Assembly: GCA_951406725.2 (NCBI GenBank)
Contig: OX597815.1
Span: 13,640,001 to 13,704,000, forward strand
Length of the DNA stretch: 64,000 nucleotides
From: Octopus vulgaris
Taxonomy: Eukaryota
Direction of reading: 5' to 3'
In this document: positions 33,124 through 61,815 of the stretch, in pieces
Position numbering within the stretch: the stretch's first letter is position 1
Layout: every line of letters starts with the position of its first letter
Notes under the pieces: model-generated
Told to the model about the DNA's origin: nothing
What the model saw: only the letters and a program-made list of their open reading frames with translations
Databases searched by the model: none
Program-made: the position numbers and the translations under genes

Positions 33124-34088
33124 TAGCCCGTTGCTTATGCAAGCAGAAGCAGCTCACTAAACGCCGTGGAAATTGTTGCCGTAGAGGTGACATTGAGGAC
33201 GGTGGTAATCGAGATAGGGTAGTGTGGGTGTAGGTTGAAAGCAGTGGAGATAAATCCTGTTGTGTTAATGGCAGTCGCACTTGGTGTTGTCTACATCGGT
33301 GTAGTTGGCGAAGATGGTAGTGGTAAGTGCCGTGGCAGTAATACATGATAGCTAGGCAACGTGGTTGATAGATGGTGGTCAGCAACAAACATATGTCGCC
33401 GCGGCAGACAATAGCGGTGTTGCAGAATATATTGTTGATAGATAACAACAGTATTAGCTGCCTGGGTTTCGAGGGTGTTGGTCGTGGTTGCAGTGATATA
33501 GGACGTGTCTTGTAACACATATACAGGAGGCACCGATGCAACTTCAATCGTGTATTGATTTTTCGATTTAAGTCGGTCGATCAGGAACGCTTATTTGATA
33601 CGGATATTTCCCATGTTCCTCCCCGAGGAATTTTTGGCTTTCATTCATTATTCTACTTTTGAACAAAACTGCTCATCTCTCTCTCTTTCTTTCTTTCTCT
33701 CTCTCTCTCGCTCTCGCTCTCTCTCTCTGTATGTATGTTTGTATATATATATATAGACAATTAAATTAAGCAGCAGTTTAGCGATGTATCGCGAAAACGG
33801 AAAACTATAATTGTCATTGAATATATATGTGTGTTAGCATGGCCGCAGTCAAATGACTGAAACCACTAACAGAATATATATACATATACATACATATATA
33901 TATATATATATAATAAATATTAGGGAATAAATCCAAATTTACAGGGAAAAAAATCAGATTTAGGATTAAATCCAATTTTATAGTAAAATATTATATAATA
34001 TTATTAGAGACAAAACCACTATTTTGCAAAACAAACAAGGAAAGACTTAATCAATACATAAAATTTTAATAAAAAGTCAAAAAAACCG

Positions 34089-34131
34089 CCACTACAATTG
34101 TTTCTTGTCCTGATCGACAACCTTCAGGTGG
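34089..34131 (-). ncRNA. Type I hammerhead, core-mutant copy (CUGAAGG, A9G)
   Basis: Reverse complement of 34164-34206 except at position 34121. Confidence 0.85.
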
Positions 34132-34163
34132 ACTTCCTAATTTGAAACTGACTTATTGGAAGT

Positions 34164-34206
34164 CCACCTGAAGATTGTCGATCAGGACAAGAAACAATTG
34201 TAGTGG
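34164..34206 (+). ncRNA. Type I hammerhead ribozyme, intact core
   Basis: CCAC-CTGAAGA-TTGTC(GATCAG)GACAA-GAAA-CAATTG-TA-GTGG. Predicted GUA cleavage after 34202; palindromic stem/loop III. Confidence 0.92.
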
Positions 34207-34424
34207 CGGTTTTTTTGACTTTTTATTAAAATTTTATGTATTGATTAAGTCTTTCCTTGTTTGTTTTGCAAAATAGTGGTTTTGTCTCTAATAATATTAT
34301 ATATATATATATATATATATATATATATATATATATATATATATATATATATATATATATATATATATATATATATATATAAGAGAGAGAGAGAGAGTGA
34401 GAGAGGTACATATACACAATGTGT

Positions 34425-57045: not shown

Positions 57046-59013
57046 TATATTCATATATGTATAAAATATATATATATATATTTATATATGTATGTATGTA
57101 TACATATATACATATATACACATATACATGCATACATATATATATATATACATAAATATATATACATGTATACATATACATACATATATACATACATATA
57201 TATATATATATATATATATATATATTAATAAAAGGAATTCCGACCTTCTCTGATTTTTCCGTTTTATTTACAATCTTATAATGATATAAGATAATATAAT
57301 AAAATAAAATAAAATAATAGAATGTTAAATGTTCATTTTGATTGAACTAGTACTTTCATGCATTAAATTCTGCACTTTTCAGGTTCATGTAGTTGTGGTG
57401 ACAGTCATGCTTCACAATTTTTGACTATAGCGAGATGATTGAATCTGTGCTTTAAATAGAGTTGGGTAGGCTCCAGATGCTAGGTTTTGCAAACTGTATT
57501 CTGAACAATTAGTGTATAGTATCACTCAATTACTTTAGCTGATCGGTTGGTTGAGCTGATTGGTTTAGGCGACACGCTTTGTTGGACATGTCAAGAGTCC
57601 TGTATCTTGACCCTGGCCGAAGCAACAATTGTTGGGCTATTTTTAGAAATGTTGTAAATAGCCTTTGTCAGAGATTTTTATATTTTTATATTTCAATTGT
57701 CATCATCATCATTGTCAGCACCTTAATTATTGTTGCTAGTGGTGATGGTGGTGGCAATATTTATATTATACATGCGATTCGACGTGGGAACAACATGTTG
57801 CTTCTCTTTCTAATTTTCAGATTCGATGCCCATTGAAACCAGTCAATACATCTCGGTCTACGGCGTGTGGGTCACCCTAAAATTCCTCATTACTCGCTAC
57901 CTGAGAAGGGCCAGCTCATTTCCTATCACTAACCTTACAATTAGTCCCCACGTGCACTATTGCTACACACCTTTTATACCTGTTTCTCCCCTTCCCACAC
58001 CACTGCCATATATCATCCTCGTTACTTTACGTTATTTTCTTCCATATGTTATATTTTCTATTTGTTACAACCTTTTATGCATTACTTTCTAAATAGTAAA
58101 TTCACTTTCCTTCCACCGTTGTTTTGATTTCTAATGTATGGTTTTACCACAGTTTTCTACAGTGCACGTTCCTACTCAAATCTCTTTTGGAGTCAAGTGT
58201 CCTCCGTATGGAGGAAAAGTAAAAAAAAAATATCTTTTTTAATATTATTGTTGCATTTGTAAAATCTCAGAAAATATTTTAAAATTCACATGTTTGTCAA
58301 ATTATTTTGTTATATTTGTCTGTCTATCCAACTGTAAACATTTTAAATATTTCACTAACTTTTTGTTATAACTTGGTAAAAGGGTACATATTTTGCCAAA
58401 AATTGCTAAATTTGTTCCCACAGTATTCTTTATCCACAACCAGAATCGTAGACTTCACTATTCTTGGACAATCCATCAAATTCCCCGGATTTTCAATCAA
58501 GCATGTAACATTTTTTCAAGTATCTTTTTTTTTCTTATCAGTCCTAGAGGACAGGCACTTTATTTTCCAACACGTGGAAATTTGTATCAAGTTCCTTTGC
58601 ACTTCTATGCATCATACTTTAAAAAATGTTCCATTTACCATTTCTCCAACATTTCTAAACACATTACATCAAGCCTCTCCAGATTTTTCGCCAGCGTTTT
58701 GCAATCTAAAATATAACTTCTCTTCACTCACACAAAACCTAAGTTTCCTACTCCTCTCCCCCTCTCTCTCTCTCTCTCTCTCTCTCTCTCTCTCTCTCTA
58801 TATATATATATATATATATATATAACATTATATATAAGGGCTTAGTAAAATAAATTACTTTGCCACATACTGAACTCATTAGAAATAGCAGCTAAAGAAA
58901 TTTCTTCAGGTATTTCTAATACTTAAAGAAGATCTCTCTCAGATAGTGTTTGCCTAAACCAACTCACAAAGGTATGGGGGAAAAAACATTAAAAATCAAG
59001 TGCAAAGGTTATT

Positions 59014-59065
59014 TGAGAACGTACGTTTCTAGATTAGTCAATTCGACATTTCTTTCGTCAGCTCA
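59014..59065 (-). ncRNA. Type I hammerhead ribozyme, intact core
   Basis: TGAG-CTGACGA-aAGA(aatGTCgaattGACtaa)TCTa-GAAA-CGTACG-TT-CTCA. GUU cleavage triplet; palindromic stem III. Confidence 0.85.
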
Positions 59066-59184
59066 GAATTCCTTGAATCGGATTTGGGAACACTGAAAGT
59101 CGGGAGCATACCCTTTCGGCTTCTCATCAGCCGAAAGGGTATGCTCCCGACTTTCAGTGTTCCCAAATCCGATTCAAGGAATTC

Positions 59185-59236
59185 TGAGCTCACGAAAGAA
59201 ATGTCGAATTGACTAATCTAGAAACGTACGTTCTCA
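59185..59236 (+). ncRNA. Type I hammerhead, core-mutant copy (CUCACGA, G5C)
   Basis: Reverse complement of 59014-59065 except at position 59191. Confidence 0.82.
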
Positions 59237-61815
59237 AATAACCTTTGCACTTGATTTTTAATGTTTTTTCCCCATACCTTTGTGAGTTGGTTTAGGCAAA
59301 CACTATCTGAGAGAGATCTTCTTTAAGTATTAGAAATACCTGAAGAAATTTCTTTAGCTGCTATTTCTAATGAGTTCAGTATGTGGCAAAGTAATTTATT
59401 TTACTAAGCCCTTATATATAATGTAATATTTTGAATTCGCCTAAAATGGTCCCTTTACATACTGAATACTTGATGAAATTGATTAATAATTAATTAATTT
59501 TACCCTCAATTGTTGAAATTATATATATACATATATATATATCTATCTTAATCTCAGTCACTCTACTTTTCTCTCTGGTAGCTTTTAACAGTGCTTTTTA
59601 TGGTAATTCGTTTTCTCCTACTTCTCTACTCTCCCAGAACTCGGAGATTTCCTTTTATTTTCGCGTCTTTGATTTCATACCTTCATTTCAAGCAAAAGTG
59701 TGTCTCACTCATACATTTGCATAATTTTCAACCTCACCTTCCACGTTCCTTTTCCTTTTTGCCTGACTCTTTCATGCGCTCAGACTTCTTCACACCAGCG
59801 CTCTCTTCACACTGCACAAGAATCTAAACATCATTCTTCCATATGCTCACAGAATACTCGCATACCCTCCAATACTTGCACAAAATCTTTGCACGTTTGT
59901 GAACGTTTTCCGACGACCCAACATACAAATCCGGAAAAATGCCATCTATATCGCAGAAAGTACACAAACATATTAACGAAGAAATTCTCAATGAAGTAAA
60001 AGAATCAACAATAAATGTTCCAACCTAATAGAAAAACTAAGCAAATTTCAGGATTTCCTGCAAAACACGATAGAAAAGAGGAAGAGAATTATTTGACAAA
60101 CACTCAATACACAAACAACATTGAAGTTGTTTGCAAAAATATCCAGGCAAACGTCCAAACATGTTGAGTAGAATATAATTCACATCGTGCAAGAATATCC
60201 GCAAATAATCCCAAGTCATCTCTCCAAAAGAGAGACGGACGCGATATATTTGGTTTAAAATCTCTCATAAGGATATTTAAATTGTGGAATATATTCAGAA
60301 ACAAGAAGAAAGCAGAAAATTTCAAACACTATATAACCTAAATACAATTGACCTTACTGGAAAAAGTACACATCAAACCGACACCCGAAGAACCAGAACA
60401 ACAGATAATTGTATGTCAAATATTATGTGGAGCTAGAAAGCAAAGTGATATTGAGACTTATAGAATACACTAACGAATAAATATACAATGTCAGAGACCA
60501 ACAACTGAAACTGGAAATTTCAAAAGGGGAAAATCGACCAAAAACTGCAAGATTGAGATGATAGTGTCTAGAAACAAGAATGGGAAAGCGATGAACTGAT
60601 TTCTTTACATAGAAATGAAACAAACGAACAGTGGCTCACCTCGTATGAAGAACAATTCAGTAAAGAATACGCAACAAACCTAGACCGACTCTTAAAAACA
60701 GGATAATCAAAAATCTCTACTGCGACCCTTACTCTCTAACAACAGAGATAGACTAACAAATGGGTAAAACAGGATCTCAACACAAAAGTACGACGGTAAT
60801 TTCGGACAAGAATTGTCAAATCATATGGAACAATCGTATAAAATTAGTAGGAAAAAATACCATGCACTAAAACATACTGCAATAATTTCACAGGAAGCCA
60901 ACATCACATGATATGAAATAATTTTAGAGAACATAAAAAAATCCACAACCAAATGGAGAACAATAATTTCGAATGACACCAAGATTGCAGGATAAGGAAA
61001 ACATTCAGAGAACACAATAACATGTTGAATGCTGAAATACGCTGAAATTATACAAACAATAATTTAAGAAAAAGCAAGTAGATTGTAAACAAATGTGACT
61101 CCAATCGTAAGAACTGATTTTTAGACATAAACCAGAAAGACAGAGACACAAGCTAGCTTCCACGGATTAAAGTAGTAGAAAAGCCTAGTGCCCGTATAAA
61201 CTCCCAGACCTGTAAAACATATCCCTTCCATAAGTCCCCATGTAAGGAGAACAGTTGTATTGTATGCAGGAAGAACCGAAGGGTTAACTGTAAGGTTAGG
61301 AGTAGTGTATAGTATATAGCTTACGATGTCCTGAGGGACGGTGCAAAAGCATGATAACTACTTACATTGGAGAGACAGCACGCAGCATAGGAAAACATAT
61401 AGGTGAGCACTGGTGAGAGGTCAAAGAAGCGAAATGCTCGTCAGTGGTCCATTAACATGCTCAAGCAGAACATAGATACTCAGTCAATAGCATAACGGTC
61501 AAAGTATTATCAACGCATAGAACTGATACGACACTTAGACAGTTCAGAGACGCCGCACTCAGAGCAATAGGCAGACCGAGCCTCAAACGAAAGCACGAAT
61601 GAAACAAGAACACCCACTGCGACATAACACAACATGACGACAAAAGACTAAAGATTGAAGGGAGAAACAGAAGAAACATTCTGATACAAACAGCGTAATA
61701 GACATACAATAGACATATATGCATATACCTATGATAAATATGAAAAAAAATTAGAAACGAAAGAAATCTGTATGAAGAGAACGGATGCAAAGAACATAGG
61801 AAGCGAACTCATATA

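Follow-up and report, generated by a model that had tools for sequence, protein, structure and literature searches.

Foldback units in an Octopus vulgaris locus read as truncated, head-to-head insertions of Penelope-like element ends

Endonuclease-bearing (EN+) Penelope-like elements (PLEs) are the closest described relatives of four foldback units in Octopus vulgaris contig OX597815.1 (positions 13,640,001 to 13,704,000; this whole stretch of 64,000 nucleotides (nt) is called the window). Published EN+ PLEs and the octopus units share head-to-head arms, a tail at one end only, a hammerhead ribozyme in the pseudo-long terminal repeat (pLTR), partial tandems, microsatellite or AT-rich targets, an intron in the 5' untranslated region (UTR) and an Asn-rich linker (PMC8557442; PMC3846280). 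Published work already covers the architecture of PLEs, their 5' UTR intron, their spliced transcripts and their non-autonomous tandem derivatives. Intron retention and the formation of inverted repeats are stated there as open questions, an antisense template has been proposed in one of the two papers (PMC8557442 or PMC3846280), and intron-less copies have been suggested to be disadvantaged (PMC2377424). Tails are longer here (55-89 nt, against 30-40 there), and intron retention is stressed there, whereas hundreds of intron-less copies occur here.

The unit 1 family shares with the Hydra clade, including Hydra-1_Obim, an RWK-like motif, DKT, CxCx5C, CxxC, CxH, a C-terminal GIY-YIG, a hammerhead and a (TA)n target (PMC8557442). 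It differs from Hydra-1_Obim in its N-terminus and hammerhead, so that it represents a different family. Its parent is also larger (about 6 kb, against less than 3 kb), with a leader intron of 1-1.85 kb and a longer Asn-rich linker. In vitro, the protein of a second relative, Poseidon PAc, cuts and extends both strands and starts reverse transcription at two internal positions, one on either side of the tail, with no requirement for hammerhead cleavage (PMC11167929). The octopus copies would share these features, with both start sites before the open reading frame (ORF) rather than inside it. In that study, the two sites are not assigned to the arms of inverted copies, and splicing is not treated. 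Animal non-LTR retrozymes (PMC7229834; bioRxiv 10.64898/2026.07.22.740005) resemble the unit 4 family in being non-coding, hammerhead-bearing head-to-tail repeats related to PLE ends; unit 4 differs in its monomer of 545-560 nt and in arrays with two fixed PLE-type ends, mostly with an inverted arm.

The foldback layout itself is known PLE anatomy; what is new is a large set of spliced, start-bounded copies. Our literature search, which covered older Penelope papers only in part, turned up neither spliced genomic PLE copies nor twin priming in PLEs. In LINE-1 twin priming, the other target strand serves as an internal primer on the same RNA, so that the 5' part is inverted and joined with little homology. 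The octopus copies differ in having a fixed second site (in the Hydra families) and arms that mostly overlap, which yields palindromes.

We find that the four units have the makeup of truncated, head-to-head insertions of PLE ends and appear to represent no new element class. It is probable that they are PLE stubs of this kind, unit 1 deriving from spliced sense RNA and the arms being primed from two nicked strands. We also lean towards a broader proposition: that PLEs readily copy spliced sense RNA, that intron retention reflects survival of promoter-bearing unspliced copies rather than an antisense template, and that the inverted repeats arise by twin priming of one RNA at the two sites that border the tail.

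Probable spliced leader and parent element of unit 1

All four foldbacks lie in the window, each bordered by (TA)n, and self-alignment of all four recovers the layout given in the initial annotation: arm, outer extension, inverted arm and (TA)n. The arms of unit 1 differ by 1 mismatch in 146 nt (outer extension 76 nt), and those of unit 4 by 1 mismatch in 296 nt plus one gap (outer extension 89 nt). Unit 3 aligns with itself at 79% over its full length and is older than units 1 and 4. Unit 2 has arms of just 45 nt (87%) with about 110 unpaired nt between them. At least three unrelated families had been proposed; we count four, of which units 2 and 3 have a related tail. The features of unit 1 are as follows.

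33912-34137, minus strand: tail-bearing arm, predicted leader exon 2 of a Hydra-clade PLE, read outward and ending at the outer reverse-transcription start site
33912-33987, minus strand: the tail, 76 nt between the two element ends; its parent equivalent ends about 55 nt upstream of the ORF
34089-34131, minus strand: hammerhead copy with core A9 changed to G
34138-34303, plus strand: tail-less arm, the end of exon 1 (34138-34154) joined to exon 2 (from 34155)
34154-34155, plus strand: exon-exon junction; a GT..AG intron of 1041-1853 nt lies at the same point in the parent
34164-34206, plus strand: minimal type I hammerhead (strict descriptor) with palindromic helix III, predicted cut after 34202

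Relatives were sought in the octopus genome itself (a 2.8-Gb assembly of 227 contigs, the window lying on contig C2) and examined as extracted stretches, designated by L numbers. For the unit 1 family, a position-ordered sample comprises 48 loci in chromosome order (the first 30 and the next 18 listed, excluding two separately extracted tandem loci) out of 1,495 exact matches to a tail 29-mer. A second sample holds the 30 best-matching loci, chosen by similarity to the query. A DNA search with the 84-nt tail alone gave no matches, the tail being of low complexity; a pattern search succeeded.

Unit 1 has a coding parent in the same genome. With the GIY-YIG fragment of one long copy as query, we recovered frames of up to 862 amino acids (aa), and all 10 stretches examined around long frames hold a frame of 828-862 aa. 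Three of the extracted stretches (L209, L210 and L216) carry the complete series: exon 1, the intron, exon 2 (which holds the hammerhead and the two element ends), the ORF and another leader that ends in (TA)n. L215 likewise combines an intact ORF with two leaders. The parent unit measures about 6 kb, its leader intron 1-1.85 kb; exon 1 is 23 nt long, counted from an initiator-like motif, and the two element ends within exon 2 lie 76 nt apart. In L209 the ORF is a single 840-aa frame with reverse transcriptase (RT) and GIY-YIG regions marked by YRDD and VVY..YIG, an assignment made from these motifs and from by-eye likeness to the published Hydra alignment. Pfam recognised neither an RT nor a GIY-YIG domain in this ORF, and nothing informative in the GIY-YIG pieces. 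Hydra-clade motifs are present at RIKWK 41, DKT 128, CTCRDKSNC 691, CYLC 797 and CRH 826, and CX2-5CxxC is absent. The named relatives of the protein come from Argonauta and Octopus. Judged by these motifs, the parent appears to be an autonomous, intact Hydra-clade EN+ PLE. The family also fits the PLE plan, with a pLTR formed by partial tandem, an inverted 5' partner, a one-sided tail and a type I hammerhead in the pLTR, and its tail ends adjoin TA or ATT repeats in all 48 position-ordered loci.

The parent copies have further features. The linker between RT and endonuclease (L209:4610-4970) is Asn-rich, with 41% Asn over 120 aa; such a linker has been described for rotifer Penelope elements (PMC3846280). 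Promoter and exon 1 stand in tandem in L112, L214 and L181 (periods of about 1.2 and 1.74 kb), as in many long copies, an arrangement that would let unspliced copies retain a promoter. A 324-nt tandem of the family (L091:924-1824), which combines the exon 2 end with the ORF start and has its own inverted arm, lacks the hammerhead. It was considered as the parent of unit 1 and rejected as a hammerhead-less deletion derivative; it is a ribozyme-free tandem parasite. A further, divergent Hydra-like ORF (L293:614-1945; 39% to the family 1 RT) is a lead to other families, such as the parent of unit 4.

The short copies of the unit 1 family lack exactly one intron. Long and short copies part exactly after an AG that follows a pyrimidine-rich tract. 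The 5' piece missing from the long copies at this point is found 1.0-1.85 kb upstream, followed there by GTAAGTATGT or GAAAGTATGT. Across 16 parent leaders the intron measures 1041-1853 nt, and its GT..AG removal is exact and free of microhomology. There are three joined forms of exon 1 and exon 2, irrespective of intron length, and two GT donors four bases apart; the downstream-donor form is matched by parents that have lost the first GT. Among the first 100 of 762 exon-1 matches, 49 are unspliced and 51 joined (38, 4 and 9 by form), with no others. Genome-wide, exact matches number 628 for the joined junction and 250 for the unspliced donor, counted as arms, not loci. The GT..AG lies on the same strand as the ORF and the hammerhead, and none of 67 joined arms continues into the ORF.

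The joined copies also share a 5' limit. Of 42 joined contexts, 41 lose their likeness to the parent at or before the A of TCACTT, which we take to be an initiator-like motif. The remaining context (L167) has the same start and is doubly spliced: after joining to a second AG acceptor it continues through a tandem promoter copy and is then spliced once more. Motif and boundary together make this a likely, predicted transcription start. The template of unit 1 was likely a spliced sense leader of at most 251 nt from start to tail end. That spliced, start-bounded copies favour a sense template is, in our assessment, nearly certain, and hundreds of copies from which the intron has been removed exactly, on the sense strand, speak against an antisense template being obligatory.

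Formation of the two arms

Both arms of an insertion trace to one molecule, since splice state and donor agree between them. Splice state is the same on both arms in all 13 classifiable loci of the 48 (8 spliced, 5 with intron; three older-subfamily loci, whose arms match each other but whose parent form was not seen, are excluded). Among the first 100 of the 628 joined matches, the donor is the same on both arms in 27 of 27 pairs (22, 2 and 3 by form), and a one-base variant is also common to both arms in 26 of these. We also compared the arms of 44 two-armed loci (30 picked by similarity, 10 position-ordered and 4 of 9 long ones). Arms of the same locus differ by 0.66 mismatches, against 3.6 between loci, a difference reached in 0 of 2000 permutations. 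Changes private to a locus fall on both arms in 9 cases and on one arm in 18, and each of 13 recurrent variants occurs on both arm types. Thus, the mirror arm is built anew at each insertion, because same-locus arms resemble each other most and no variant is arm-specific.

The junctions between arms vary from locus to locus. An inverted arm is present in 39 of the 48 position-ordered loci, with junctions at many positions and inserts from less than 100 nt to several kb. In 23 short junctions the tail arm is the longer in 10, the tail-less arm in 6, and the two are equal in 7; overlap at the joint is 0-3 nt in 13 and 10-11 nt in 2, and 8 carry inserts of 1-20 nt. Arms without overlap are found in L096 of the unit 1 family and in L222 and L227 of the unit 4 sample. 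The inner element end also terminates a 9-kb ORF-bearing copy (L209).

We propose that the element protein would nick the target, a (TA)n or AT-rich site, on both strands. Of the two resulting 3' ends, one would begin reverse transcription at the outer internal site and produce the tail arm; the other would begin at the inner site of the same RNA and produce the tail-less arm. Both complementary DNAs (cDNAs) would run toward the 5' end of the RNA, halt at the transcription start or earlier, and be joined head to head with little or no homology. We infer that the two internal starts would act jointly on one RNA. With a spliced leader as template, the product would be a palindrome no longer than about 420 nt, stripped of its promoter and likely a dead end; unspliced RNA would give long copies that keep intron and promoter. 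Unit 4 may be the product of the same event on a non-coding 558-nt tandem parasite, and units 2 and 3 of the same event on Neptune-like elements.

If this is true, hundreds of processed leader copies record a transcription start, alternative splicing and two priming events per insertion. The arm statistics would then connect each insertion's two arms with the two start sites seen in vitro (PMC11167929). With its intact ORFs and a leader of 251 nt, this young family is a convenient small system for experiments, and the short PLE palindromes of other animals could be mined for the positions of start sites and splice junctions.

The nearest rival keeps the PLE origin and the spliced sense template, and has a single target-primed cDNA fold back, copy itself and be resolved at an inner TA-like site, unequal arms arising by later deletion around the apex. 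Self-priming has been proposed for PLE palindromes (PMC3846280), and arm identity and splice concordance follow from it directly. It would also account for the perfect apex at an AATT palindrome shared by 7 of the 30 best-matching loci, and for the 10-11 nt overlaps at 2 of 23 junctions, both of which count against two-strand priming. Unequal arms, however, conflict with simple foldback because the tail arm would need to hold everything, and the tail-less arm is the longer in 6 of the 23 short junctions and in most unit-2-like loci. The arms without overlap in L096, L222 and L227, junction overlaps mainly of 0-3 nt, and long sense copies that end at the inner site also speak against it. Twin priming is therefore probably the better description, and foldback the unlikely one. 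Other observations weigh against our reading as well. One of the 39 inverted loci (L072) has a tail on both arms, 9 of the 48 loci have no inverted arm within 3.3 kb, and the coding parent of the unit 4 family was not found in the 4 stretches searched. Overlapping arms require one RNA stretch to be copied twice, which is not shown in the experiments of the cited papers, and the likeness of the arms could stem from later conversion between them and their unequal length from later deletion. Finally, unit 1 of the window pairs the upstream donor with a loop variant found, among sampled parents, only where that donor is lost; splicing across tandem promoters would explain this mismatch.

The remaining rivals fare worse. 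The initial annotation had offered two readings of the units: minimal inverted PLE insertion products, which our data support (centres differ in 22 of the 30 best-matching unit 1 loci and in 14 of 14 inverted unit 4 insertions taken in order of position), or a class of non-autonomous palindromic retroelements whose entire hairpin is transcribed and moved. A complete unit 1 at 35 of 40 scored loci (full length, at 94-100%), a complete unit 2 layout at 40 scored loci and identical centres in 7 of 30 would suit the latter. These recurrent loci had, however, been chosen by likeness to the query, and in the position-ordered samples junctions vary. When the proposed spacer comparison was run, centres and junctions differed by locus; with 0 of 13 recurrent variants arm-specific, private variants on both arms, and the promoter region upstream of the start missing from the units, we regard whole-hairpin movement as very improbable. 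The recurrence of the units is instead accounted for by the fixed 5' end of the RNA. Assembly or library artefacts merit even less credence: palindromes within microsatellites are hard to assemble, but asymmetric ends fixed at two sites, arm-specific mutations, parent sequence in the loops and the target duplications of 8-14 bp that flank the unit 2 family speak against this reading. Nor do we give more than a negligible chance to a DNA deletion in a master copy as the source of the family 1 short form. Splicing is read here from genomic copies, which leaves room for such a deletion, but three joined forms with two donors and a second acceptor, all GT..AG and without microhomology, argue otherwise, as do junctions that are independent of intron length, tied to parent variants and bounded by a common 5' limit.

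Hammerheads as probable passengers

Hammerheads had been assigned to three of the units. The assignment holds for unit 1, which has an intact core, and for unit 4, where the motif is imperfect; that of unit 3 is damaged, and the cores on the mirror arms of units 1 and 4 are mutated. Our own strict type I descriptor matches the window once, at 34164-34206 (+) in unit 1, and matches none of 20 shuffles. The copy on the mirror arm has A9 changed to G, and stem II variants in the family retain pairing. On the minus arm of unit 4 the core is kept and an A.A mismatch closes stem II, while the plus arm carries G5 to C; an older relative (L036) satisfies the descriptor, and young copies have the stem II mismatch. 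In unit 3 the core is broken by an insertion on one arm and represented by its 3' half alone on the other; many unit 3 relatives, read by eye, have an intact core. Unit 2 has no hammerhead, and none was seen in its family. Rfam, at gathering and E-value thresholds, matched no hammerhead family in the window, and its microRNA matches there are hairpin or TA-repeat noise. A relaxed descriptor matches 8576-8653 (-), with a long stem II loop, adjoining a TA run.

We considered the hammerhead cut site as the 5' boundary of insertions and rejected it in two families. None of the 48 position-ordered unit 1 loci has its 5' limit at leader position 72, and about 45 of the first 100 unit 2 family matches extend upstream, with no hammerhead there. 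Of 16 truncations within exon 2 in the unit 1 family, 10 fall at leader positions 79-96 (e.g., L062, L066, L094 and L107), an 18-nt U-rich stretch 7-24 nt past the predicted cut. This cluster could mark a stall, a joining hot spot or a cleaved template; a stall or joining hot spot is the better reading, because in two loci one arm halts there and the other reaches the start. We infer that in family 1 the predicted ribozyme is a passenger in the insertion step.

Units 2, 3 and 4 and neighbouring features

The other units and their neighbours in the window are listed below.

40992-41148, minus strand: older single arm, about 80% to unit 1, without mirror and without tail
41264-41364, minus strand: unit 2 tail-bearing arm (tail of about 55 nt plus 45 nt), putative Neptune-like PLE end without hammerhead
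41380-41520, plus strand: unit 2 tail-less arm, longer than the tail arm
48436-48633, minus strand: unit 3 tail-bearing arm, with a damaged hammerhead at 48592-48633
48630-48757, plus strand: unit 3 tail-less arm, with the 3' half of the hammerhead only
56130-57051, plus strand: 3' part of a decayed, putative Neptune-like PLE, with a GIY-YIG remnant at 56186-56347 and an end homologous to unit 3
58825-59134, minus strand: unit 4 tail-less arm (monomer positions 159-469), with an imperfect hammerhead at 59014-59065
59129-59518, plus strand: unit 4 tail-bearing arm (monomer positions 167-558), with a hammerhead at 59185-59236 (core G5 to C) and the tail at 59430-59518

The unit 4 family is built on a tandem repeat. 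Its arm is part of a 558-nt head-to-tail monomer that occurs in arrays (monomer range 545-560 nt). The unit 4 tail 26-mer has 3,007 genome matches; the first 30 represent 19 insertions, 14 of them with an inverted arm inside the extracted stretch and all 14 with different junctions. Eight cross the monomer junction; the ends lie exactly at or close to monomer positions 469 and 558, arranged in either order. Because the arrays end at two fixed PLE-type sites, mostly with an inverted arm, ready-made multimers appear to be what is inserted. The family thus has the features of a retrozyme-like, non-coding parasite inserted with PLE ends. Of the suggestion that the units are retrozyme-like, this much survives, as a tandem monomer of 545-560 nt; it fails for the palindrome and for the other units. 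The unit 4 tail weakly resembles the start of a Hydra ORF (14 aa, E 0.01).

Units 2 and 3 point to a different group of PLEs, labelled Neptune-like here on the basis of motifs that we take to be diagnostic. The reported homology of the unit 3 arm to the 3' end of a GIY-YIG-bearing element is borne out: unit 3 matches 56886-57051 at 74% (E 3e-20), and the decayed GIY-YIG at 56186-56347 matches that of L274 (tblastn E 2e-7). Relatives of unit 3 (30 loci, picked by likeness) have varied upstream ends, often lack a nearby inverted arm, and run on into the sequence seen at 56.5-57 kb.

The unit 2 family, with 2,151 matches to a 17-mer, has broken GIY-YIG frames with YIGETSRS upstream of its end in L274, and a 5' hot spot. 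It lies mostly in AT-rich non-repeat DNA outside (TA)n, flanked by the target duplications noted above; the targeting of (TA)n that had been proposed for all units holds for families 1 and 4 but not for this one. Because the tail-less arm is longer than the tail arm, the apparent spacer of unit 2 is the unpaired part of that arm. Across L250-L288 the position of the tail-less end varies by a few bases (in one case by 50) so as to agree with the initial letters of the target duplication, as though short base pairing had primed it.

Further repeats and remnants occur in the window. At the 5' end of the 56-57 kb element, a 40-nt inverted copy (56130-56305) forms a head-to-head junction inside the endonuclease region, and a second decayed Neptune-like GIY-YIG remnant lies at 61312-61560 (tblastn E 2e-16). 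Another foldback, at 32820-33120, has 72-nt arms (92%) about 160 nt apart and no (TA)n flanks. Four tandem copies of 199 nt (53567-54366; 99% identity) lie within a decayed LINE-like RT region and may be a very recent duplication or an assembly slip.

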